From NCBI RefSeq assembly GCF_054482525.1, contig NZ_CM137006.1: 64,000 nt of DNA; one strand, 5' to 3'. The position numbers and the translations under genes were made by a program. This document shows positions 42,185-56,912 of the stretch, in pieces. The notes beneath the pieces were generated by a model. The model ran no database searches. It was not told the origin of the DNA and worked only from the letters and a program-made list of their open reading frames with translations. Within the stretch, counting starts at the first letter, position 1. Every line of letters starts with the position of its first letter.

Positions 42185-43069
42185 TCAGCGTTCCAGCCCC
42201 CTCTGCCGCCCTAACTGCCACGACACCGACCCGCCCTGCACGATGCCCATAACCTCGCGGCCGAGTTGGCGGTCGATGATCGGCCGCCACGGGACAAGGG
42301 TGAACTCATGGGATTTCTCGACCACGGCGAACTTGCCGCTCGATAGATGCACGGTTCCGGTAAACTTGCCGCTGACGCTCTCGCCGTCCGTGGCGGCGCG
42401 GAACGGCAGGCCCTTACTCAAAGCCATATCCGATCCGACGCCGGCTACCTCGCGCTCCCGCAGGATGGCGAGAAGGTTGCGCCGGTAGAAGACGCGGCTG
42501 TCCCGGCTGCGGGTGGCGTCGCCCTGTTCGATATGGTGCTCGCGGCGCTGGTCCATGGCTTCGCGGACTTGTTGCCCGAAGCCGGTTGGCGCAAGGTCGG
42601 CCGTCTCGCCGTGGATCAGCCGCCGGTCCAGCCAGGTCGCGCCGTCCGATCCGATCTGTTTGTTCAGATCGACCGGGGAAAGGACGCGAACGCTGGCCTG
42701 ACTGTCTCGGCCGGCGTCATGGGCGGCGGCACGGCTGACCAGATCATTGGGGATGCGCCATTGGTCGGCGTCGATCCGCTCGACGATACCGGCCCGGCGT
42801 AGCGCCTCCAGCCGGCGCACATGGGCATCGACATAGCCCTCATAGTCGCCGCCTGGAACGCGGCACGTATAGGAAGAATAAACGCCCTTTTCACCCAAGT
42901 CCAACAGCTTTGGACCGCAGTTGACTCTTTCGACACCCCTGCGATGCAACCCAATCCGGCTGACGGGGAGCCAGCAACGCTGAAAATTTACCCTCCTCTT
43001 TCCCACTAGCGGCTCCTTTTCCGACAACCAGCACGGCGGATCCCTGCCGCGGCGCTGTGAACGCAGCAT
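42185..43069 (-). CDS. floR-associated hypothetical protein (often annotated VirD2-like)
   Basis: 294-aa GC-rich ORF between floR and the ISCR2 fragment, the position this gene occupies in floR cassettes. Confidence 0.55.
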   Translation of the reverse strand: MLRSQRRGRDPPCWLSEKEPLVGKRRVNFQRCWLPVSRIGLHRRGVERVNCGPKLLDLGEKGVYSSYTCRVPGGDYEGYVDAHVRRLEALRRAGIVERIDADQWRIPNDLVSRAAAHDAGRDSQASVRVLSPVDLNKQIGSDGATWLDRRLIHGETADLAPTGFGQQVREAMDQRREHHIEQGDATRSRDSRVFYRRNLLAILREREVAGVGSDMALSKGLPFRAATDGESVSGKFTGTVHLSSGKFAVVEKSHEFTLVPWRPIIDRQLGREVMGIVQGGSVSWQLGRQRGLER

Positions 43070-43099
43070 TTTGATTGGTATCGTTGGCCTTCAGGCTCG

Positions 43100-43753
43100 T
43101 CAGTCAAACAGACCCAGGAGCAGCTCAGCCGGTGGCGCCCGGCTTTCGGGTAACGCCCTGGTCCCGCTGGTTTCGGCTTTGTGCTTCAGGTGATCAAGGA
43201 TCTGCTTGATCACTATAGGGTCTTCAATGCAGGCGATGACTTTCATGGCGCCGCCGCAGCCGCTGCAGGTCTCGATGTCGATATTGAAAACACGCTTGAG
43301 CCGTTGCGCCCATGTCATCGACGCTCGCCGTTGTGCTGGTGTTGCCGGTTCATCAGCCACCCTGACCTTGTTGCCCCTGCCCCGTTTTGCCGGCGTGACC
43401 AACGCCCGGTGCCGACTGTTGGGTGCGAACACCCCGTGGAAGCGGGTTAGGTTGACTCTGGGCTTCGGTACCAGGGCGGCCAGCCTTGCAATGAAATCCA
43501 ATGGTTCGAAAATGACGTGCGTGGTGCCGTCCCGGTACGGCGTCTTGAGCTGGTAGCGCACGTTGCCGCCTCGTGTTAACGACAGCCGCTTCTCGGATAC
43601 CGCCGGGCGGCTGATGTACCGGCACAGCCGTTCGAGCTTCTTGCGTTCATCGGCCCTGGCCGCCACGCCGGCGTGCAGGCTGGACCCGGCTACCTTGCCA
43701 ATCCCGTCACCGAACGGATCACCACTGGTCGGCAGAGTTTGCAAAGTGAACAA
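43100..43753 (-). mobile_element. truncated ISCR2 (IS91-family rolling-circle transposase), C-terminal part only
   Basis: 217-aa ORF resembling the ISCR2 C-terminal half; N-terminal half absent, sequence changes to papI at ~43740. Confidence 0.65.
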
Positions 43754-44705: not shown

Positions 44706-44911
44706 ATGATGGCATTCCGGAGTTATCTTACAGATAAAAAGAAGTCCTTATCAGAAAGCAGACAGGTTATATCAGTATTCTGTCGATAAATAACCTGCCC
44801 TGAAAATACGAGAATATTATTTGTATTGATCTGGTTATTAAAGGTAATCGGGTCATTTTAAATTGCCAGATATCTCTGGTGTGTTCAGTAATGAAAAAGA
44901 GGTTGTTATTT

Positions 44912-45180
44912 ATGATTAAGTCGGTTATTGCCGGTGCGGTAGCTATGGCAGTGGTGTCTTTTGGTGTAAATGCTGCTCCAACTATTCCACAGGGGCAGGG
45001 TAAAGTAACTTTTAACGGAACTGTTGTTGATGCTCCATGCAGCATTTCTCAGAAATCAGCTGATCAGTCTATTGATTTTGGACAGCTTTCAAAAAGCTTC
45101 CTTGAGGCAGGAGGTACATCCAAGCCAATGGATTTAGATATTGAGTTAGTAAATTGCGATATTACAGCTTTTAAACAAGG
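44912..45180 (+). pseudogene. papA: major pilin papA, 5' fragment only
   Basis: MIKSVIAGAVAMAVVSFGVNAAPTIPQGQGKVTFNGTVVDAPCSIS... pilin N-terminus; pilin-like sequence ends at ~45177, where a perfect palindrome starts. Confidence 0.7.
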
Positions 45181-45189
45181 TCAAGCACT

Positions 45190-45235
45190 GATGAATCCCC
45201 TAATGATTTTTATCAAAATCATTAGGGGATTCATC
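45190..45235. repeat. perfect 21-bp inverted repeat (hairpin) at the papA truncation junction
   Basis: gatgaatcccctaatgatttt / tatc / aaaatcattaggggattcatc; no flanking T-run. Confidence 0.7.
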
Positions 45236-45583
45236 AGGACTCAGTATAAATCCAAGACAAAATCCCCCCGTGAATGCATTTAATAAAGACTTTAATGTTC
45301 TGTTAAAGGTGCGGATATAAAATGCATAAATAAAAGAAAGAGATCCGGTGATTATACCGGTGCAAAAATATGTTGTCCATTCAGGTACCGTATTTTGTAA
45401 AACAGTATAATGAGATATAGCGGATGCCCACAACATATACCAGCACAAACCACCTGTAATAAGATATGTTATTGCTGTGGAAAACCATTTCCTGTATTTA
45501 TTTTCAGGGTAATTGTTCTTGCCCATCAACGCATTTCCAGAATATTTAAAATAACCTGTCACCGAAACGGAATAAAGGCGCAA
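45200..45583 (-). CDS. hypothetical small membrane protein (127 aa)
   Basis: Hydrophobic segments (LITGGLCWYMLWASAI; GIITGSLSFIYAFYI; GGFCLGFIL); 42 bp downstream of the dGTPase gene on the same strand. Confidence 0.4.
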   Translation of the reverse strand: MRLYSVSVTGYFKYSGNALMGKNNYPENKYRKWFSTAITYLITGGLCWYMLWASAISHYTVLQNTVPEWTTYFCTGIITGSLSFIYAFYIRTFNRTLKSLLNAFTGGFCLGFILSPDESPNDFDKNH

Positions 45584-45625: not shown

Positions 45626-46858
45626 TTACTTCAGACAGTGAGTTTCCCATTCCTTGACTGCAAATGTATCCATCATACCTGAAATATAGTCAACCACTGC
45701 TCGTTTTTTGCTGATTTCAAATATACAGGAATCTGGTTGGGGTAAGGTGAATTTAAGTTCAGGAGGCAGAAATTTATAATTCTCTCCTTCATTGTAAAAG
45801 TCATATAAATCCCTGATTATTTTATTTCCCCTGAACTCATAGGTGAGGATATTACGTTTTCGCATGATGACTTTAAAGAGAAGTTTTTTGAGTCCTTCGG
45901 ATAACGCATTCAGTTTCCCGAACCCCAGTTCCTGAAAACCATTCAGGTTCGTTACTACAGAAATATCTGCAACGAGGCGATTGACAATATTTGAAGTTAA
46001 CTCCTTGCGGAATATGATGGCAAATTCTTCTGAGGTTTTCAGTAAGTTAGCCTGAAAAGCGGTGTTTCTCGACTGAGTAACGATTTCCCTGAACTGTTCC
46101 CTCGCTCCCCGGAATTCGTCAGAAATCTGAAACTCATATTCAATATCTTCAATCGTGACCATGTTCCTGCTAAGGGCATCTTCCAGGTCATGCGCGGCGT
46201 AGGCAATCTCATCCGCGAGATCCATTATCTGCGCATCAATCGTTTTCTCTCCGGGATTCAGATCGAGCTGATTTTCAGCAAGCAGGTTAATGTAAAAATA
46301 GTAATCATCATCATAAATGAACTTGCCGGCAGTAGCTGCAGCGCGGGGGATGGGATACTTAACAACCGAAAGTAAACTACGGTGAGTCAGATTTAATCCG
46401 TTGCAGTATGAAAATTTCTTCTCCAGTTTTCTCAGGATACGTAGCGCCTGTGCATTACCTTCATAGCCGCCGATTTCTTCAGACAGTTCATTAAGCAGTT
46501 TTTCACCGGAATGACCGAAAGGAGGATTTCCGATGTCATGCGCCAGCGCTGCCAGTTCAACCACCACCGGGTTAATCAGTTTGAGGTCTGACGCGATACT
46601 TCGGGCGATCTGAGCAACCTCAAGACTGTGCGTTAATCTGTTTCTGTTGAATTTTTCAGGATCAATTTCAAAAAGTTGCATCTTTCCCTGCAGCCTGCGA
46701 AATGATGATGAATACAGAATACGCGCGTAATCCCGTTGATAATTATCCCGGCTTCTTGTTTCACCATCGGGGGACGGGTGCTCTCTGGTATCAGCAAGCG
46801 CACTGATAAGTTTTTGTTCCTGCTCTTGCGCAAATTCTTTTAATTCATTGCAGTACAT
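45626..46858 (-). CDS. HD-domain dGTPase-like deoxynucleoside triphosphate triphosphohydrolase
   Basis: Motifs YQRDYARILYSSSFRRLQGKMQLF, RLTHSLEVAQIARSIA, LAHDIGNPPFGHSGE typical of Dgt-family enzymes; start at second Met (RBS-like AAGGAAG upstream); AT-rich. Confidence 0.75.
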   Translation of the reverse strand: MYCNELKEFAQEQEQKLISALADTREHPSPDGETRSRDNYQRDYARILYSSSFRRLQGKMQLFEIDPEKFNRNRLTHSLEVAQIARSIASDLKLINPVVVELAALAHDIGNPPFGHSGEKLLNELSEEIGGYEGNAQALRILRKLEKKFSYCNGLNLTHRSLLSVVKYPIPRAAATAGKFIYDDDYYFYINLLAENQLDLNPGEKTIDAQIMDLADEIAYAAHDLEDALSRNMVTIEDIEYEFQISDEFRGAREQFREIVTQSRNTAFQANLLKTSEEFAIIFRKELTSNIVNRLVADISVVTNLNGFQELGFGKLNALSEGLKKLLFKVIMRKRNILTYEFRGNKIIRDLYDFYNEGENYKFLPPELKFTLPQPDSCIFEISKKRAVVDYISGMMDTFAVKEWETHCLK

Positions 46859-47008
46859 ATTTCTTCCTTTCTGGAGCATGTTACCAAATCAGAATACCGG
46901 ATGAACAAAACTGGTGGCTACATCCTGTAGGGATTATGTATTAGTAAGCTCTGGCCATTAGTGCCATTTCAGGTTATGTGATCCTACCCACGTAATATGG
47001 ACACAGGC

Positions 47009-47875
47009 CTAAGCGAGGTTCTTGTTTTCAAATTGTTCCGGACTGAGGCCGCCACACCAACTGTGCCGCCGCCACCGATTGTAATCACATTCGATATAAT
47101 TAAACACCGTTGCCCGCATTATTTCCCGGCTGATAAAGTGTTCTCCATGGATACATTCCACTTTCAGCGAATGAAAGAAGCTTTCCACGCAGGCATTATC
47201 GTAGCAGCAACCTTTTGCGCTCATACTTCCACGCAGATTATGCCGCTTCAGTTGCGCCTGATAATCTGCTGAACAGTACTGGCCTCCACGGTCCGTGTGA
47301 ACGATAACGTTCCGGGGCCTCTTACGCCGCCACAGCGCCATCTGCAGGGCATCGCAGGCCAGTTGCGCCGTCATGCGTGGCGACATTGACCAGCCAATAA
47401 CGGCACGTGACCACAGGTCAATGACCACTGCCAGATACAGCCAGCCTTCATCTGTACGTAAGTACGTGATGTCTCCTGCCCACTTCTGGTTCGGGCCACT
47501 GGCGTAAAAATCCTGCTCCAACAGATTTTCTGACACAGGCAGGCCGTGTGCGCGGTAGCTGACCGGGCTGAACTTCCGGGAGGCCTTTGCCCTCAGTCCC
47601 TGACGGCGCAGGCTTGCCGCCACGGTTTTTACGTTAAAGGGGTAACCCTGAGCACGCAGTTCATCCGTCAGGCGTGGGGCACCGTAACGCTGTTTTGACC
47701 GGGTAAAAGCCGCGAGGACAACGCTGTCGCAGTGTTGGCGGAACTGCTGACGCGTGCTTATCCTTGTCCGCCGCTGACACCACGTATACCAGCCGCTGCG
47801 GGCCACCCGGAGCACGCGGCACATTGCTTTGATGCTGAACTCAGCCTGATGTTTTTCAATAAAGACATACTTCAT
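47009..47875 (-). CDS. insF: IS3 transposase OrfB
   Basis: 288-aa product matches IS3 OrfB as recalled. Confidence 0.9.
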
Positions 47876-48170: not shown

Positions 48171-48337
48171 GTGAGTCACCTCTGACTGAGAGTTTACTCA
48201 CTTAGCCGCGTGTCCACTATTGCTGGGTAAGATCAAGTCTTACTTACCCTGTGAACCATGTTGATATTGATACTATATTGACTATATGCCATACAGGTGG
48301 TAATGATTAGTTACTACCATACAGGAAAAGGTAGAAA

Positions 48338-49318
48338 ATGACTCTTTTGGTAACGGCTGAGTGTGTTGACGATCTGATAAACGATGTTCATCAAGCTATC
48401 CTAGCGGATGGACTCAGTAACGATCCTACAAAAGGATCAACTCTAGAGATTCTTGGTGCCTATCTTGTCCTTACCGACCCCCGCCGAAGAATAAGTAGAA
48501 CAGAATCCCGAGGAAAACTAATTAGTTGCTTAGGTGAATTTCTGTGGTATCTCTCAGCTCAGAACGATCTTGAGTTTATAAAACACTTCATACCACGTTA
48601 CGCTGAATCCGCTGAGTCAGATGGGAAAATACATGGTGGTTACGGGCCACGGTTGTTTAATATGCGTGGTTTATATAATCAGCTAAAAAATGTTATCAAC
48701 CTTTTGCAGGAGAAAAAACCTACCAGACGTGCAGTAATACAGCTTTTCGATGCCTCAGACTTGGTGCCCTCAAAAACTGAACAGCGAGAATACGTAGATA
48801 TTCCTTGTACAATATCTATGCAGTTTATTGTCAGATGTGAAGAGCTGCATCTATTTGTTTGTATGCGTTCTAACGATGCCTTTATGGGGCTGCCTCATGA
48901 TGTATTTGCGTTCACGATGCTACAGGAATTAGTTGCCCGCTTGATAGGATGCGAATTGGGTCACTATCATCACTTTGTATCCAGCCTACATCTCTATAAA
49001 AATGATTTAGAAAAAGTGAAGGCTCTTCAGAAAGAGGGGTTCATGAGCACCCTACCAGTCATGGGATCGATGCCTGAAATGCATTCCTTAGATGATATCT
49101 TACCCCTGCTTGAGGCAGAAAAAGCTCTTCGAGAGAATAAGGAATTTGATATTGACACTACTTCCTTGAATGACTACTGGAAGGATTTATTGCGTATATT
49201 AAAAATCCACTTTTTGTTACGTTCACATACACCCAACCACAAAGGACTAGCCTTCCAAGAGTTGGCTGCAATGAAAAATCAGGAATATCGGTTTATTTTT
49301 GAAGGAAGACTACAATGA
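48338..49318 (+). CDS. thymidylate synthase-fold protein (ThyA / dNMP hydroxymethylase family) with ~90-aa C-terminal extension
   Basis: Aligns by eye to ThyA: GSTLEILGAYLVL, ISCLGEFLWYL, LYNQLKNVINLLQEKKPTRRAVIQLFDASDL, DIPCTISMQFIV (Cys at catalytic position), CMRSNDAFMGLPHDVFAF, HLYKNDL. Confidence 0.7.
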   Translation: MTLLVTAECVDDLINDVHQAILADGLSNDPTKGSTLEILGAYLVLTDPRRRISRTESRGKLISCLGEFLWYLSAQNDLEFIKHFIPRYAESAESDGKIHGGYGPRLFNMRGLYNQLKNVINLLQEKKPTRRAVIQLFDASDLVPSKTEQREYVDIPCTISMQFIVRCEELHLFVCMRSNDAFMGLPHDVFAFTMLQELVARLIGCELGHYHHFVSSLHLYKNDLEKVKALQKEGFMSTLPVMGSMPEMHSLDDILPLLEAEKALRENKEFDIDTTSLNDYWKDLLRILKIHFLLRSHTPNHKGLAFQELAAMKNQEYRFIFEGRLQ

Positions 49319-50259
49319 AAAGACATAATCAAATCAGTCAGCTGGTTAGTAATTTGCAAAATTTTAGCCGCAATGAACACAACCTAAATGGCCTAAGTTC
49401 TCCTGCCTGCTTTGATGTTTTAGCCTGTCAGATTATCGACAGTATACGTCGTATACGCTATGTGGAAACTCTTGCATTACGGACCGATTATATGACTCCG
49501 TTACGAAAAGAGCCGAATTCTGATGTTTTTGATCCTCTCCGCGCTGCCTGCCTTTATCTTCGTGACAACAATTACGATGAAGCCTGCTGGCTGGTTTTCC
49601 TTGCCACACATTTCGGCAAGAGTAACAAAACCGGCTGGATTTTGTGTCGAGATATATACAGTGGACTCGGTACACAAACGTGGACATGGGATACGATAAC
49701 TGATGACTTTGCTGCTTTTGAACAATGGTTCGCCAGCGTCTCTGATGAGTTGACAGCTAACAGTAGCCTAAGACAATATGGTAACCATCGGAAATATGAA
49801 ACGAAGAAATATCACTCTCGTCGTTCAATACCTGCGGTTTTTCGCTCTTACATCGGATTCATTGGTGCTACACACAGTCATGAGGCTAGGTTTGCAGAGG
49901 CCAAGAGCTTTTCATCTTCACCAGAATCTTTATTCGAACTATTGTATTCAGGGCTAAATGCCGTGATCTCATTTGGACGAACCGCAAAATTTGATTACCT
50001 AACTATGCTCAAGAAAACGGGACTTCTGGATGTAGAGCCGGGTCATGCTTTTCTGAATGGAGCAACCGGGCCCCTTCAAGGAAGCCGGCTACTTTTCAGC
50101 AATAGCCGGACTGCTGGTGACACAATAGACGTATTGAATGAAAAACTAGCTGACCTTGCGGCAATTATTCCTGCACCCTACTTGAGAATGCAGGTTATTG
50201 AAGATGCGTTGTGCAACTGGCAGAAATCACCTGACCGTTATGTCTATTTCGGCGGCTGA
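49315..50259 (+). CDS. uncharacterised protein co-operonic with the TS-fold gene
   Basis: 314-aa ORF overlapping upstream gene by 4 bp (ATGA); no motif I can assign. Confidence 0.5.
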   Translation: MKRHNQISQLVSNLQNFSRNEHNLNGLSSPACFDVLACQIIDSIRRIRYVETLALRTDYMTPLRKEPNSDVFDPLRAACLYLRDNNYDEACWLVFLATHFGKSNKTGWILCRDIYSGLGTQTWTWDTITDDFAAFEQWFASVSDELTANSSLRQYGNHRKYETKKYHSRRSIPAVFRSYIGFIGATHSHEARFAEAKSFSSSPESLFELLYSGLNAVISFGRTAKFDYLTMLKKTGLLDVEPGHAFLNGATGPLQGSRLLFSNSRTAGDTIDVLNEKLADLAAIIPAPYLRMQVIEDALCNWQKSPDRYVYFGG

Positions 50260-50261
50260 TA

Positions 50262-51344
50262 TCAGACGATATCTTCTTTACGGAATCTCACTTTAAACCG
50301 ATTAAGGTGAGAAAAAGGTATATTACCTTCATGCTGCAAATATCCCAGTACGATCCCTTTGGATACCCCCATTTTCCTAGCTAACCGGATGATCTCTTTC
50401 CAATGCCGGACACCATAGCGACTAAGTTGCTGCCGGTATTCTTCTGGGATAAGAACATCAACGGCAAATTTATCTGCTTCCTTTTCCTCTTCCGACGAAA
50501 GACTATCTTTACCTTCTACGCGAACTCGGACAGCTTCATGCAAGATGAGATGCCCAATCTCATGAAACAGCGTAAACCAAAAATGGTCATCGGTCAGATA
50601 ACGGAAACTCATGACTAGGGTTGCGCGATCTGGTGTAAAAAAGCAGGTAGCACCACTTGCCCGACATCCCTTTGGCGTTGGCAACACAACGAGAGAAACT
50701 CCAGCAGTGGCGAGAAGGTCGCGAATGTAAGGGATAAAAATCCTCATGTCGGGTTCATTTGTAGCTTTGCGCAGTTCTGGCAACAATGCTATCAGCCCCT
50801 CTTTATCCCATACAGCACAGTTTTGGTTTGAGGTAAGTTGTGCAGCCCTAGTCAGCCACACCAAATCGGCCATAGGCTCGGTTGCCAGATTAAGAGATTT
50901 ACGAAAAGCGACCAAAGGAGCATCTGACTGAATTTTATAAAAAAAATCATTGACGGAATTTATTCCGAAAAACGATAGGCAGTGCTGGAATTTACTTTCC
51001 CGAGTTGTAGTTTTGGGGATCCAACCAAACTCCATCATATCACGTACAGGCAATGATTCGAGCCAATCATTATTCACTTTCTCGAGGTATCCAATTTGCT
51101 GGCGATAAGCGACTTCGCGCTTGATCCAGAAGTCTGTCGATACGTTGAATAACTCCTCAAGCTTACAAGCCAGAGACTCATTGAGTCGGATTTTTCCTTC
51201 AAGAAGTTGCTGACCCCGGATAAGAGACAATCCAATCCTCTTACTCAGTTCTTCACCAGAAAGCCCATGTTCATCCATTAGATCTATAATTGTATCACCG
51301 GGTGGAGATACCCAGTCAGGCTGGAAGTCCTGCGTAACTATCAT
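50262..51344 (-). CDS. XRE-family HTH fused to ImmA/IrrE-type zinc metallopeptidase (HigA-like antitoxin/regulator)
   Basis: N-terminal HTH (IIDLMDEHGLSGEELSKRIGLSLIRGQQLLEG), C-terminal HEXXH (FTLFHEIGHLILHE); overlaps upstream small gene by 4 bp. Confidence 0.65.
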   Translation of the reverse strand: MIVTQDFQPDWVSPPGDTIIDLMDEHGLSGEELSKRIGLSLIRGQQLLEGKIRLNESLACKLEELFNVSTDFWIKREVAYRQQIGYLEKVNNDWLESLPVRDMMEFGWIPKTTTRESKFQHCLSFFGINSVNDFFYKIQSDAPLVAFRKSLNLATEPMADLVWLTRAAQLTSNQNCAVWDKEGLIALLPELRKATNEPDMRIFIPYIRDLLATAGVSLVVLPTPKGCRASGATCFFTPDRATLVMSFRYLTDDHFWFTLFHEIGHLILHEAVRVRVEGKDSLSSEEEKEADKFAVDVLIPEEYRQQLSRYGVRHWKEIIRLARKMGVSKGIVLGYLQHEGNIPFSHLNRFKVRFRKEDIV

Positions 51345-51667
51345 TTCACGTCACCTATGAACACTAACCGTATCCGGCTAACTCGGGACCAGTTAATTGT
51401 ATTATCTTGATTTTTGGGCTGAACTGTATTCCCACAGACAAATCCCATTTTTACATCACCGAGAATGGTAATTGTAATACACTCTTCCCCATCCTCAAAG
51501 CAGACCTCCGGCGAACCTACGGGCAACAGTAATATGTTGTCTGTCACGGAAAGATCGGAAAGTCGCGAGCGTAGTCTTGATGCCACTTTGTCACCAAAGA
51601 TCTCATTTGCCTCATGCATACTCTCGCAAATAGTCCTTAACTTCTTGCTTTGAAAGGTAATGAACAA
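51341..51667 (-). CDS. HigB-like (killer-protein family) type II toxin candidate
   Basis: 108 aa; N-terminal KKLRTICESMHEANEIFGDKVASRLRSRLSDL resembles HigB-family pattern; toxin-first gene order. Confidence 0.5.
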   Translation of the reverse strand: MFITFQSKKLRTICESMHEANEIFGDKVASRLRSRLSDLSVTDNILLLPVGSPEVCFEDGEECITITILGDVKMGFVCGNTVQPKNQDNTINWSRVSRIRLVFIGDVK

Positions 51668-51810
51668 AATTATCCACTTTTATTTTTCTTGGTTGCTACG
51701 TTTATAGCAAACTCAACGCTCATTCACAAAATGAGATGTAGCGAATTAATGGACTCTGCACATATTAAATGTTAATGATGGACTTAAAATCACGGATTCG
51801 TAAGGGAAAC

Positions 51811-52077
51811 ATGAAAGGTAAACATCAAGACACTAAAGCCCTGTCTGACGTGCTAGCGGAAATGCAACGGCAGGATGCCAAATGGGGGGCAGACCGTAAT
51901 CAAGATCCTTTTATCTGGGGAGCGATTCTCGGAGAAGAGGTGGGAGAATTTCATCAGGCTGTCCTCCATGATCGTTTTGGTGGTAAAGCAGCCGGTACCA
52001 GTAGGGAGGAAGCAGTACAAATTGCTGCTGTTGCACTGCAAATCATCGAATATTATGATCGCGTAATAGATCGATAA
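51811..52077 (+). CDS. small MazG-like NTP pyrophosphohydrolase-like protein (tentative)
   Basis: AILGEEVGEFHQAV and REEAVQIAAVALQIIEYY resemble the MazG EExGE helix pair; start at internal Met of ORF 51769..52077. Confidence 0.35.
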   Translation: MKGKHQDTKALSDVLAEMQRQDAKWGADRNQDPFIWGAILGEEVGEFHQAVLHDRFGGKAAGTSREEAVQIAAVALQIIEYYDRVIDR

Positions 52078-52261
52078 ATTAGAATTAATCAACTAAGAGT
52101 CTTTTACACGCGAAGATGAACTCTGGCAGCCATCTACCTTCGTGGGCCTGTAGAACACATCTAATTGCAATACTCCCAGTTAATCACTAACCAGCCTCTC
52201 CAGTAAGGCTGGTCGATTAGGTTTAATTAAACAGATATAACAAGCAATTCACTTGGTATTA

Positions 52262-52335: not shown

Positions 52336-52930
52336 ACGGTGCAAAAGTGGCTCTTCCGCAACCTAGGTGGAGATTTTCATGCCAGTGGACTCATTACCCT
52401 CTGCCTAAGTAGTTCAAATCCGGCTCGACCATACATCAGATGTTTCAGCATCTTCAGGCGATTTACATGACCTTCGACAACACCGTTACTCCAGCGGCTG
52501 CTGGTTGCCTCACATATAGCCGCAGCATCAGCTTCCATCCCCGCAGCCACGCGCCGAAGTTCTGCTGAACCGTTTTCGTGGACTCGAGTGAACCAACTGC
52601 TTAGATTTGATTTATTTGGGGTTTTCAGAATACGGTAGAACTCAAGTACTAGTTGCTGCGCTATTTTCAGCGCCGGTTCTTTTTCACACATCAGACTAAT
52701 AAATCGGGAAGCATAATTTTCTTCACCCCTGATTATTATCCAGGGCATCAACCAGCGGCTTACCCGGGACACTGAAGGAAGTCTGGCGGCAGTAGTAACT
52801 GGTGGGTTCCAGCCTTTACGCCATTTGGCAACAGCATCCCTGACGATGGTTTCACTGCCTGTAACCCCCGGGCCACCATTTCCCGCCATATCCAGTCGCT
52901 GGTGTGCTGAATTGGTCATGTATGAAGGAA
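52336..52930 (-). mobile_element. ISL3-family IS remnant (3' part of transposase gene and one terminal repeat)
   Basis: ORF 52377..52919 ends with ISL3-type C-terminus WSNGVVEGHVNRLKMLKHLMYGRAGFELLRQRVM; terminal sequence ggctcttccgcaa at ~52336. Confidence 0.55.
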
Positions 52931-53495: not shown

Positions 53496-56400
53496 TTGAT
53501 GGAGCAGTCTCTCAATTTTGAAATGTTGCGCAGCCAGTGGCCGGAACTGGCTGAACTCGCGTGTATGGCGGAACGCTATGTTCACTCCGATCCGGAAAGT
53601 TGTCTGGTCAAGCTGCGCAACTACACCGAATTGATGGTGCGCTGGTTGTATCGTCAGGAGCGGTTGCCGGAAGGTATTAAGGCTAATCTTTACGATTTAA
53701 TGAATGCTGATGTCTTTACCAGCATGATGCCGGAAGCCATCATCATGAAAATGGATGCGCTGCGTATCCATGGCAACCGTGCCGCGCACGGCGGACGTAT
53801 CAAAGCTAAAGATACTTACTGGCTGCTCAAAGAAGCGTATTTGTTGGGAATTTGGCTGTATGTTCGCTACGCCCACGGTAATGTTGATGACTGCCCCAAA
53901 TTTACACTCCCTCCATTAACACAATCTTCAGGTCGTGCAGATGAAAAACGTCTGGAAGATGCAATCAGGGCTCAGGATGAAAGCCGTGAGCGCGAACTGG
54001 CGCTGCAACGCGCACTACAGCAAGAACAGGAAAAGGCCGAACACCTCACTCAACGCCTGAATGAAGCCAGAGCGCGTAACCAGCATGTTGCCGATATTCT
54101 CTCTATTGATGAAGCGGAAACCCGCCGTCGCCTGATTGACTCTCGCCTGCTTGCTGCTGACTGGAATGTAGGCGAAGGCCTTAAAAATACCGATCAGGTT
54201 ACGCAGGAACATCCCGTTAAAGAACAACCTACCGCGACCGGAGACGGTTATGCGGACTATGTCTTGTGGGATGAGGCACACAAACCGCTGGCGGTGGTGG
54301 AAGCAAAAAAAACCAGCGTCAATGCCGAGCAAGGACGAATTCAGGCCCGGCTGTATGCAGACTGGCTGGAAAAAGAATACGACCAGCGTCCGATCATCTT
54401 CTACACCAACGGCTATGATATCTGGCTGTGGGATGACCATAAAACTCATGGTTATCCCCCGCGTCGGGTGTTTGGCTTCTACAGCAAGGAAAGCCTGCAA
54501 TATCTTATTCAACAGCGTGAAACCCGTCTTCCGCTGAACAGTGTGCCGCACGTAAAAGATAACGAAGGTAAGGCCGTTGCCGGACGTTTGTACCAGCTTG
54601 AAACCATTGCCCGTGTCAGCGAGCGGTTTACCAACAAATACCGGCAATCGCTAATTGTTCAGGCTACGGGTACAGGCAAAACCCGCGTGGCAATAGCGCT
54701 AAGCAAACTAATGATTGATGCCCGCTGGGTAAAACGCGTCCTGTTTCTTTGCGACCGCAAGGAACTACGTAAACAGGCGGCGAATGCCTTTAATCAATTC
54801 ACCAATGAGCCGCTGTATGTGGTCGGGAAATCGAAAAAAGCAGACAGGCAGAATGCTAGGATCTACATCGCCACCTATCCTGGTATGATGAAAATCATGG
54901 ACCATTTCGATGTTGGTTATTTCGATTTGATCATCGCCGATGAATCCCATCGCTCTATCTACAACGTTTACGGCGATCTGTTTAAGTATTTTGATGCCCT
55001 CCAGATTGGCCTGACGGCCACGCCGATTGACATGGTGAGTAAAACCACTTTCGGCCTGTTTGGTTGTGAAGGACGTATTCCTACCGCCAACTACAGCCTG
55101 GAAGATGCCATCGCCGATAACAATCTGGTTCCCTATGAGGTTGTCACGCACACCACAGAATTCCTGCGCGAAGGCATCAAACGGGAGAAATTAAGCGACG
55201 CACAAATCCGCGAGCTGGAAGAACAAGGCATAGATCCCAATACGCTGGAGTTTGATGGCAAGGCGCTGGATGAGGCGATCTACAACAAAGACACCAACCG
55301 CTATATCCTGCGTAACCTGATGGAAAATGGCCTGAAAGATCGGGACGGCCAGTTGCCAGGTAAAACCATCATTTTCGCCCGTAACCACAAACACGCGCTG
55401 CTGTTGAATGAATTATTCGACGATATGTACCCGCAGTTTGCCGGGCGCTTCTGCCAGGTCATCGACAATTACGATCCCCGCGCCGAGCAACTGATTGATG
55501 ATTTTAAAGGGCTGGATGAAAGCACCAACAAAGAGCTGACCATCGCTATCTCCGTTGACATGCTCGATACCGGTATTGATGTCCCGGAAATTGTGAATCT
55601 GGTCTTTGCCAAACCGGTCAAATCAAAAGTGAAGTTCTGGCAGATGATTGGCCGTGGTACGCGCCTCTGTCCGGGGTTGTACGGTTACGACGATAACGGC
55701 AAACCTCTGGATAAACAGAAATTCCGCATTTTCGATCACTGGGGCAATTTTGAGTATCACGAACTGCATACCGAAGAGGCCGAAGTCACAGCGACAAAAT
55801 CGCTTGCACAAAAACGCTTCGAAGCGTGGGTTATGCTGGGGGCCGCTGCGCAACGTAAATTCGACAAACAGGCGGTGGATTTAGTTGCTCACCAGCTACG
55901 CGAGCAAATCAATGCACTGGATGAAAAGTCGATTGCCGTCCAGGAAAAGTGGCATCAAAAAGCGCAGTACAGCGATGAAAAAGTGCTGCGCCAGCTTTCC
56001 CCGAAAACACAGCAGGATTTGCTATCTGTCCTGGCCCCGCTGATGCAGTGGCTGGACGTGCGCGGGCAAAGCGACGCTATGCGCTTTGATATGGATATTC
56101 TGGCGGCGCAAACTGCCCGTTATACCAACCCGGAAGAGCTGGATGTGCTCTGGCCGGTCATCGTCGAAAAAGTGGAGCGCCTGCCGCCGCATTTGGCGCA
56201 GGTCCAACAGCAAGGACCGCGGATCAATCAGCTTCGTGATTTAGGCTGGTGGAAGCAGGCCAGCCTGGAAGAGCTGGAAGATATCCGCATTCATCTGCGC
56301 GGCATCATGCACCTGATGGAAAAAGACGCGACGCCGAAATTTGGTTCGATACAGGTGGATATTACCGAAGATGCGAACCTGATTCAGACGGAAAACCGCA

Positions 56401-56912
56401 AAACCAACATCCGCTCGATTGACTTCAAACTCTATCGCCAGCAGGTGCAGGGAGCGCTGGAGCCGCTGTTCCAGCAAAATCCGGTGCTGAAGAAAATCCG
56501 CAACGGCGAGCCTGTGACGCAAAGCGAGCTGGATGAACTGGCTAAACTGGTGCTGATCCAGAACCCTAACGTTGATATCCGGGCACTGAAAGAGTTCTAC
56601 CCGCAGGCGACCGCCAGCCTGGATAAACTATTGCGTACCATCATCGGGATGGACAGCGACGCGGTGGAAGTGCGCTTTGCTCAGTTCGCCGCTGATAACA
56701 GCCTGACCAGCCAGCAATTGCGCTTCCTGTCATTGCTGAAAAACCACATTCGCGATTACGGCACCATTGAAATGCGGCAGCTCTTTGAACAGCCTTTTAC
56801 GCATATCCACAACGAAGGCGTTACCGGTGTGTTCCCTGATATAGAGCAGATCGCCCGCCTACAAAAGATAGTCGAAGAGCTGGGTGTTGTGACCGACGCA
56901 GCAACGGTATAA
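53496..56912 (+). CDS. hsdR: type I restriction enzyme R subunit (HsdR)
   Basis: 1138 aa; helicase motifs QATGTGKTRVAIAL and IIADESHRS; N-terminal domain typical of HsdR. Confidence 0.9.
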   Translation: MMEQSLNFEMLRSQWPELAELACMAERYVHSDPESCLVKLRNYTELMVRWLYRQERLPEGIKANLYDLMNADVFTSMMPEAIIMKMDALRIHGNRAAHGGRIKAKDTYWLLKEAYLLGIWLYVRYAHGNVDDCPKFTLPPLTQSSGRADEKRLEDAIRAQDESRERELALQRALQQEQEKAEHLTQRLNEARARNQHVADILSIDEAETRRRLIDSRLLAADWNVGEGLKNTDQVTQEHPVKEQPTATGDGYADYVLWDEAHKPLAVVEAKKTSVNAEQGRIQARLYADWLEKEYDQRPIIFYTNGYDIWLWDDHKTHGYPPRRVFGFYSKESLQYLIQQRETRLPLNSVPHVKDNEGKAVAGRLYQLETIARVSERFTNKYRQSLIVQATGTGKTRVAIALSKLMIDARWVKRVLFLCDRKELRKQAANAFNQFTNEPLYVVGKSKKADRQNARIYIATYPGMMKIMDHFDVGYFDLIIADESHRSIYNVYGDLFKYFDALQIGLTATPIDMVSKTTFGLFGCEGRIPTANYSLEDAIADNNLVPYEVVTHTTEFLREGIKREKLSDAQIRELEEQGIDPNTLEFDGKALDEAIYNKDTNRYILRNLMENGLKDRDGQLPGKTIIFARNHKHALLLNELFDDMYPQFAGRFCQVIDNYDPRAEQLIDDFKGLDESTNKELTIAISVDMLDTGIDVPEIVNLVFAKPVKSKVKFWQMIGRGTRLCPGLYGYDDNGKPLDKQKFRIFDHWGNFEYHELHTEEAEVTATKSLAQKRFEAWVMLGAAAQRKFDKQAVDLVAHQLREQINALDEKSIAVQEKWHQKAQYSDEKVLRQLSPKTQQDLLSVLAPLMQWLDVRGQSDAMRFDMDILAAQTARYTNPEELDVLWPVIVEKVERLPPHLAQVQQQGPRINQLRDLGWWKQASLEELEDIRIHLRGIMHLMEKDATPKFGSIQVDITEDANLIQTENRKTNIRSIDFKLYRQQVQGALEPLFQQNPVLKKIRNGEPVTQSELDELAKLVLIQNPNVDIRALKEFYPQATASLDKLLRTIIGMDSDAVEVRFAQFAADNSLTSQQLRFLSLLKNHIRDYGTIEMRQLFEQPFTHIHNEGVTGVFPDIEQIARLQKIVEELGVVTDAATV

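Follow-up and report, generated by a model that had tools for sequence, protein, structure and literature searches.

What does an enzyme with the fold of a thymidylate synthase (TS) do when its gene lies in an AT-rich region beside a toxin-antitoxin (TA)-like gene pair? The question is raised by two overlapping genes at 48338..50259 of a 64,000-nucleotide stretch of DNA (contig NZ_CM137006.1 of NCBI RefSeq assembly GCF_054482525.1), referred to below as the window. A first-pass annotation, made from the letters of the window without database searches, had described them as an operon of a TS-fold enzyme and a partner without recognisable motif and had proposed an accessory module for nucleotide modification or nucleotide-pool targeting, in DNA hypermodification or anti-phage defence. 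Here we report that the two genes belong to a mobile four-to-five-gene cassette that is the same across many bacterial phyla. It consists of two convergent operons, one encoding the TS-like enzyme and a transferase-family protein of the aGPT-Pplase3 group, the other a small HigB-fold protein and a helix-turn-helix (HTH) protein fused to an M78 metallopeptidase. We give an even chance to the proposal that the cassette protects against phages by acting on cytosine, in nucleotides or in DNA. Known relatives exist for every part, namely PD-λ-2 A/B, the phage amino-acid:DNA transferases (AADTs) and T4 gp42/MilA, and the family already had a name and had been flagged by computation; what is new is the combination of a cytosine-type hydroxymethylase, a kinase-less bacterial clade-3 AADT and a HigB/HTH-M78 switch.

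A cassette of two convergent operons

Both open reading frames (ORFs) of the enzyme operon were confirmed, at 48338..49318 (+, 326 aa) and 49315..50259 (+, 314 aa), with a 4-bp ATGA stop/start overlap preceded by a Shine-Dalgarno-like GAAGGAAG. The AT-richness ascribed to them holds as well, the GC content of the pair being 0.39-0.45 compared with 0.50-0.64 in much of the surrounding window. Downstream lies the TA-like pair (50262..51667, -), in which a 108-aa HigB/RelE-fold protein with a TTG start (51341..51667, -) overlaps by 4 bp the start of the gene for a 360-aa fusion of a HigA-type HTH and an M78 (ImmA/IrrE) metallopeptidase (50262..51344, -), a homologue of PD-λ-2 component B.

Species representatives (~100,000, each with a single genome) were scanned for the cassette and gave at least 219 loci, of which 80 were fetched; gene order was counted where the contig leaves room. 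The TS-like gene stands upstream of the partner, on the same strand, in 75/76 species loci and on 23/23 viral (IMG/VR) contigs, so that the pair does co-occur across genomes. The HTH-M78 gene is convergent with the partner and abuts it downstream in 77/77 species loci and on 20/20 viral contigs. The picture of two genes in an operon with a TA pair as mere neighbour therefore has to be given up: the pair is an obligate part of the cassette. Loci were found in Proteobacteria, Bacteroidota, Acidobacteriota, Chloroflexota, Planctomycetota and Actinomycetota. Neither the four-gene order nor any catalytic residue is lost in more than 100 loci with sequence identities of 35-85%, and the enzyme and control pairs diverge in parallel (65% and 64% identity in Providencia, 50% and 55% in Vibrio). 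In E. coli, to whose chromosome the window belongs, the 3.8-kb block 48270..52100 is present at an identity of at least 98.5% in 231/5426 complete genomes (4%), and is chromosomal every time. The abutting 3' ends are universal among the loci, with a median of 19-22 bp between aligned ends, and hint at a coupling by convergent transcription. In the window the stop codons of the partner and M78 genes are 2 bp apart and lie inside the palindrome TGATATCA (50257..50264), with no terminator-like structure between them.

The enzymes and their control genes

The fold assigned to the product of 48338..49318 (+) was upheld by a match to Pfam PF00303 (Thymidylat_synt; 6e-25, residues 58-232), and so was its catalytic cysteine: Cys157, in the motif DIPCTISMQF, aligns with the TS/MilA nucleophile (ThyA C146) and is present in 76/76 relatives. 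RefSeq names the gene 'thymidylate synthase' and PHROG phage TS families match the protein at 1e-43, whereas all eight NCBIfam TS models score below their cut-offs, which span 108-576 bits (best 81.4 bits vs 327). The closest solved relative in the PDB is MilA, the CMP 5-hydroxymethylase of mildiomycin biosynthesis (1.6e-41 over residues 26-304), and ThyA proteins follow at 1e-18 or weaker. The C-terminal extension noticed at first pass is real by comparison with ThyA; it is a trait common to MilA-type enzymes, since the MilA alignment reaches residue 304.

The specificity of the enzyme can be predicted from positions read against published determinants, conservation being counted in 76 cassette homologues. 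Cytosine is specified by an aspartate at the ThyA N177 position (D186 in MilA, D179 in T4; PMC5175136), which is Asp188 here (76/76). Serine together with arginine determines the use of deoxyribose, and the substitutions A176S/K133R shift the preference of MilA to deoxycytidine monophosphate (dCMP) (PMC5175136); the equivalent residues are Ser178 (ThyA S167; 76/76) and Arg130 (ThyA R126'; 67/76, 88%). An acidic residue at the ThyA L143 position, hydrophobic in ThyA itself, leads to a hydroxymethyl instead of a methyl product (PMC13326640), and Asp154 occupies this position, with Asp or Glu in 66/76 homologues (87%). His218 and Tyr220 are also invariant. Taken with the Pfam and PDB matches, these residues place the protein with the MilA/T4 gp42 type, and it is best read as a predicted dCMP 5-hydroxymethylase. 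Identity with ThyA was rejected on account of Asp188 in place of the uracil-specifying asparagine, Asp154 at the L143 position and the low NCBIfam scores; the earlier statement that the gene is not housekeeping thyA agrees with this and with the small share of E. coli genomes that carry the block. A 5-hydroxy-dCMP synthase activity was likewise rejected, because Asp180 is retained (76/76) at the ThyA D169 position, where an asparagine is the mark of these flavin-dependent enzymes (PMC13326640).

The partner (49315..50259, +), whose translation is coupled to that of the TS-like gene, can be recognised from its sequence, contrary to the first-pass annotation: it matches Pfam aGPT-Pplase3 (clade 3; PF18746, 5.5e-90) over residues 34-313 and ADDT (PF18724, 1.1e-58), which identifies a clade-3 aGPT-Pplase/AADT-family enzyme, and newer RefSeq records already use the aGPT-Pplase name for it. 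Its homologues form ~3,900 clusters. An AlphaFold2 model built with 32 homologues has a mean predicted local distance difference test score (pLDDT) of 93.4 and a predicted helix-hairpin-helix (HhH) fold like that of DNA glycosylases; among solved structures an AADT comes closest to it. Conservation within the clade is highest in the block Q293..E296-D297-x-x-C300-N-W-Q-K, in which E296, D297 and C300 are kept in at least 95% of 84 clade-3 sequences. Cys91, in a 'DEACW' motif, was considered as the catalytic cysteine and rejected because it is not conserved, whereas Cys300 is. In the phage enzyme gp46 (PUGT), E243/T244 and C247 are the metal/acid and nucleophile residues (PMC11472151). Clade-2 phage enzymes put glycine, serine or putrescine on 5-phosphomethyl-deoxyuridine in DNA (PMC8989533, PMC11472151), by a route that passes through a Cys-C6 adduct and then an exocyclic methylene (PMC8989533).

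Clade 3, by comparison, is bacterial. A tblastn search of 50,697 sequenced phage genomes gave zero matches to the partner, only 24 loci, several of them prophage-like, were found in the 2.9 million viral contigs of IMG/VR, and the phage AADT structural relatives in BFVD are distant (TM ~0.45-0.5). The basic character of the family (median isoelectric point (pI) 9.2) and its HhH-type fold make us lean towards a nucleic-acid substrate; a resemblance of the modelled partner to QNG1 makes a nucleotide substrate possible as well.

The control pair has its closest precedent in PD-λ-2, a three-gene TA-like abortive-infection system of E. coli in which B is toxic by itself and is neutralised by A, and in which a third, unrelated gene is also needed for defence (PMC9519451). 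PADLOC assigns the 360-aa protein to its model PD-Lambda-2_B (8.7e-30, residues 15-341), and Pfam finds an N-terminal Xre/HigA-type HTH_3 and a C-terminal Peptidase_M78 (2.4e-10); weaker PADLOC matches are to CapP and RmrA (1e-10) and to Lit. Its M78 motif H261-E262-x-x-H265 is conserved in 81 sequences, which suggests that the peptidase is probably active. The HigB-fold protein, predicted with a pLDDT of 94.5, is conserved across phyla and gives no match to the PADLOC PD-Lambda-2_A model. Its gene, unannotated in most RefSeq E. coli records, precedes the M78 gene in most loci by tblastn; the copy in L043, which tblastn missed, matches by hhalign at 3.8e-26.

A proposed anti-phage role and its alternatives

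The genomic context points towards defence. In Serratia marcescens, Pantoea agglomerans and two IMG/VR contigs the five-gene block has P2-type gpA on one side and gpQ, the portal gene, on the other (L091:2275-10900, L095:2032-11666, L098 and L099); this site has been described as a P2 hotspot for anti-phage genes (PMC9122126). Neighbours of the cassette elsewhere include a type I restriction-modification (R-M) locus and a dGTPase in E. coli, a Shedu-type SduA_C gene in Bradyrhizobium, Gabija GajB in Rhizobium, HipA and conflict-system genes in Vibrio, and a type I R-M locus next to an integrase in Providencia. According to the DefensePredictor study (Science 2026, PMC13092281), the TS-like protein WP_000174035.1 is predicted to be defensive, its log-odds of 7.63 exceeding the strict cut-off of 4, and 45% of all cloned predictions were validated. 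Hotspot, neighbours and prediction thus lend the proposal of an accessory pyrimidine-modifying or anti-phage module support from context, and an anti-phage role is likely. The cassette in L091 adjoins a HicAB pair.

How might such a system work? In the mechanism that we propose the HigB-like/HTH-M78 pair would silence or neutralise the system until phage infection or DNA damage is sensed, which would turn it on. The TS-like enzyme would convert dCMP and methylene-tetrahydrofolate to 5-hydroxymethyl-dCMP (hm-dCMP), and Cys300 of the clade-3 transferase, together with Glu296 and Asp297, would attack C6 of the 5-hydroxymethyl-cytosine (5hmC), either in the free nucleotide or in the base once it has been incorporated into replicating DNA. 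The attack would expel the hydroxyl and produce an exocyclic methylene, to which a nucleophile would add at C5 in a thiol-mediated C5 substitution. The deoxycytidine pool would be drained and/or bulky cytosine adducts would appear in phage DNA, and replication would stop, probably as abortive infection. DNA C5-methyltransferases can derivatise 5hmC with thiols by the same Cys-C6 activation and do so without phosphorylation, which makes a kinase-independent chemistry plausible. In the phage pathway, the hydroxymethyl group is activated by a 5-hydroxymethyl-deoxyuridine (5-hmdU) DNA kinase (PMC8989533, PMC11472151). Our specific version, an inducible and kinase-independent cytosine branch that is gated by HigB/HTH-M78 and corrupts the phage nucleotide pool or replicating DNA, is offered as a tentative possibility, and a good deal less probable than an anti-phage role in general.

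Several findings weigh against this proposal. A kinase-family gene was found in none of ~100 cassettes (a Walker A motif appears in 1/76 TS-like sequences and in none of the Pplase3, M78 and HigB-like families or the ~265-aa accessory family described below), and the leaving-group chemistry is conjectural because no kinase belongs to the cassette. E. coli is not known to have an efficient hm-dCMP kinase, which makes incorporation into DNA uncertain unless the kinase of a phage is hijacked. The pairing by hhalign of MQVLEDALCNWQK in the partner with IQEVETILCKWKS in gp46 (E243, T244, C247) is statistically weak (E 0.032), and neither single-sequence nor profile searches of PDB sequences with the partner reach a solved structure, so that its equivalence to gp46 rests on fold and motif. 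The HigB-like protein keeps only F5, R11, C14 and W93. The two enzymes might not be the effectors, because in PD-λ-2 it is B itself that is toxic. Neither of them matches any PADLOC model, and the enrichment near defence genes, a further point checked, is modest: in a blind sample of the 30 nearest flanking ORFs of 15 loci only two match PADLOC clearly, one to GajB and, more weakly, one to Mad2. Finally, systems containing aGPT-Pplase are, according to the DefensePredictor report, predicted yet unvalidated (PMC13092281).

The toxicity of B underlies an alternative that we consider unlikely, in which the HigB-like/HTH-M78 pair is the abortive-infection effector and the enzymes act as sensor, trigger or accessory in the manner of PD-λ-2C, for example by detecting or processing hydroxymethyl-pyrimidine nucleotides made by the phage instead of poisoning its DNA. 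The nearly full-length homology of the M78 protein to PD-λ-2B, its conserved HEXXH motif with a probably active peptidase, and the requirement of PD-λ-2 for an unrelated third gene beside a toxic B and a neutralising A (PMC9519451) all accord with it. The parallel divergence of enzyme and control pairs fits either reading, but the preservation of the catalytic residues of both enzymes across phyla argues for real biosynthetic flux. That flux could also be directed at self: a 5-substituted cytosine in the DNA of the host or of the mobile element would serve as a restriction shield or self mark, with the TA-like pair in the part of a regulator or an addiction module. All that is known of the AADT family concerns DNA hypermodification (PMC8989533, PMC11472151), the HhH-type fold and basic pI of the partner are in keeping with such a role, and the P2-like prophages that carry the cassette could use it in lytic growth. 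Yet the cassette encodes neither a deoxynucleoside monophosphate (dNMP) kinase nor a dCTPase by which incorporation could be enforced, a cognate nuclease is also absent from it, clade-3 matches are absent from the sequenced phage genomes and limited to the few viral contigs counted above, and the prophage cassettes occupy the cargo hotspot and not the replication genes; self-modification is therefore judged unlikely.

We regard as more improbable a TA or addiction locus joined to small-molecule or salvage chemistry without a phage role, on the analogy of MilA/MilB and bacimethrin. The TS-like enzyme would then make a hydroxymethyl-cytosine nucleotide, whose base would be freed or altered by the glycosylase-fold partner to yield a metabolite or antimetabolite. 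Ser178 and Arg130 are, however, of the deoxy type, unlike their counterparts in MilA and BcmA, the partner has the cysteine motif of a transferase and not the catalytic residues of a glycosylase, no other biosynthetic genes are linked, and the patchy mobile distribution, the hotspot site and the PD-λ-2 homology fit defence better. Hardly credible at all is the view that the gene provides a second or substitute housekeeping thymidylate synthase, or that the locus is what is left of a phage hypermodification cluster in decay. The RefSeq label and the PHROG match would favour it, but the NCBIfam equivalogs lie far below cut-off, aspartate replaces the Asn177 equivalent in every homologue, and the gene is confined to 4% of E. 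coli genomes; decay is contradicted by the gene order and catalytic residues kept in more than 100 loci across the full range of identities.

The cassette resembles several known systems without coinciding with any. It shares with PD-λ-2 a HigA-HTH/M78 fusion, overlapped by a small HigB-like gene that may be the counterpart of A, and differs in the third gene, which is P4-antitoxin-like in PD-λ-2 and whose place is taken by the convergent TS-like and aGPT-Pplase3 operon; the PD-Lambda-2_C model is unmatched by every cassette protein. The phage thymidine pathway comprises a dUMP hydroxymethylase, a 5-hmdU DNA kinase and a clade-2 AADT (M6 gp51, ViI gp247, PaMx11 gp46/PUGT; PMC8989533, PMC11472151), whereas the cassette has a clade-3 protein, a cytosine-type TS, no DNA kinase and no pyridoxal phosphate, radical S-adenosylmethionine or flavin adenine dinucleotide tailoring enzyme, and is tied to a TA-like pair; the likeness between the two transferases lies in the clade-3 E-D-x-x-C-N-W and the E243-T244-x-x-C247 of gp46 (Glu-x-x-x-Cys). 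With T4 gp42 and MilA the TS-like enzyme has in common the catalytic cysteine, the aspartate at N177, the acidic L143 position and a MilA-type C-terminal region. It departs from MilA in having serine and arginine, the deoxy type, for Ala176 and Lys133, and from T4 gp42 in being encoded by hosts and mobile elements without the gp1 kinase, gp56 dCTPase and glucosyltransferases.

A host-encoded TS homologue has a precedent in defence. According to the DefensePredictor study, DS-4 ('NTTI') is a validated E. coli system of a TS, a dNMP kinase, a 5-hmdU DNA kinase, a TIR protein and a hypothetical protein (PMC13092281). Its TS is 29% identical to the TS-like enzyme (E 1e-28) and is of the uracil type, since it has asparagine at the N177 position; DS-4 is without an AADT and a HigB/M78 pair, and the cassette without a kinase or TIR gene. 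The anti-phage dCTP deaminases and dGTPases, one of which is encoded 1.5 kb away, remove a deoxynucleotide from the phage pool, as is proposed for the cassette, but by deamination or triphosphate hydrolysis and not by C5 hydroxymethylation and substitution. ImmR/ImmA, CapH/CapP of CBASS and RmrA of RosmerTA also combine an M78 metallopeptidase HEXXH motif with an Xre-type HTH; in the cassette, HTH and peptidase are fused (360 aa) and the associated protein has the HigB fold. The first-pass view that the architecture had not been described has consequently to be narrowed in the light of the homology of the control half to PD-λ-2 B and probably A, the validated TS-containing DS-4 and the DefensePredictor listing: the combination is new, its elements are not.

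The known AADT members are all phage-borne and used to escape restriction; the cassette represents a distinct clade of hosts and mobile elements with a defence-type switch. Should it protect against phage, the immune logic would be new, in that the invader would have its cytosine modified instead of being cut or starved, and the PD-λ-2-type control pair would gain a second, enzymatically tractable output. Should the kinase-independent reading be true as well, the cassette would provide the first enzymology of clade-3 aGPT-Pplase, the first cytosine AADT and a new class of immunity that writes damage into viral DNA; as a tool for labelling 5hmC, a transferase that derivatises this base with no phosphorylation step beforehand would be of interest. 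The cassette measures 3.8 kb and occurs in culturable E. coli, and active-site mutants can be defined (C157A, C300A and H261A).

Accessory genes, control regions and surroundings

A fifth gene is found in some lineages. The small protein encoded at 51811..52077 (+) is annotated in RefSeq as 'MazG-like family protein', a label unsupported by NCBIfam and the PDB, which give zero matches, and PHROGs return only function-unknown families. The gene holds the same position in Enterobacter, Providencia, Serratia and Pantoea and is absent from all more distant loci, and was rejected as a core component because it is restricted to Enterobacterales. About a third of the species loci have an extra ~265-aa gene between the TS-like and partner genes (L027:7204-8004, L065:3113-3919 and ~27 others). 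The family comprises at least 3,179 clusters and zero Pfam domains, its invariant motifs are ATLGLNPSNREF, ACHLDLIPxAT, LILNG and GxNHNIQSSFG, and searches of Pfam, NCBIfam, PHROGs and the PDB gave zero matches. To the eye it has the look of the uracil-DNA glycosylase superfamily, but comparisons with E. coli Mug and Ung are not significant. Four marine gammaproteobacterial cassettes have a further gene of ~100 aa, assigned to phrog_4887 (function unknown), before the ~265-aa gene (L048:6839-7144, L059:6773-7135, L065:2781-3092 and L066:6850-7152).

A promoter-like site (TTGACT, 18 nt, AATGAT; 48278..48307, +) lies ~30 bp before the TS-like gene, downstream of the end of the insertion sequence IS3; found by a consensus scan, it is on its own at chance level, and the block ATTGACT...GGTGGTAATGAT..GTTAC upstream of the orthologues is conserved in Enterobacter and partly in Providencia. 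The divergent intergenic region between the HigB-like and MazG-annotated genes (51668..51810) has conserved promoter-like blocks of its own, TTTATAGCAAA and GGACT...TAATG.TAA being kept in five enterobacterial genera. An operator search there returned the inverted repeat TTGCTACGTTTATAGCAA at 51693..51710, which is no rarer than chance. The site at 48278..48307 and the promoter-like site of the MazG-annotated gene at 51760..51795 share an arrangement of GACT, ~17-18 nt and [GT]TAATGAT that recurs in several genera; it may be a common control element or reflect similar -35/-10 boxes.

The IS3 copy, the TA-like pair, the dGTPase and the MazG-annotated gene were all found where the first-pass annotation had placed them. 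IS3 (orfB at 47009..47875) ends near 48235, ~100 bp short of the start codon of the TS-like gene; disruption of the operon was rejected because the conserved promoter-like block is intact. The HD-domain dGTPase (45626..46879, -) matches the PADLOC anti-phage dGTPase model at 1.5e-109. No dGTPase was found beside the cassette by tblastn in ~100 other loci, and a functional link was therefore rejected; the gene seems to serve defence independently and, like IS3, is an unrelated neighbour. At 53496..56912 (+) and downstream lies a type I R-M locus (hsdR, with M and S after it in the matching RefSeq record), behind which come genes for an AAA ATPase and a hypothetical protein; with these and the dGTPase the region is a defence island.

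Around the cassette the island is pieced together from remnants of genes. These include a truncated chaperone-usher fimbrial major-subunit gene (44879..45283, +) and an ISL3 transposase fragment (52377..52919, -). An RlxS-type relaxase in truncated form and an ISCR clade Ia (IS91-like) transposase reduced to its C-terminal half (42185..43753, -) lie in the segment 40000..43900, whose GC content is 0.55-0.64 and which abuts the AT-rich island; this suggests that the high-GC block is an ISCR-borne segment acquired separately.

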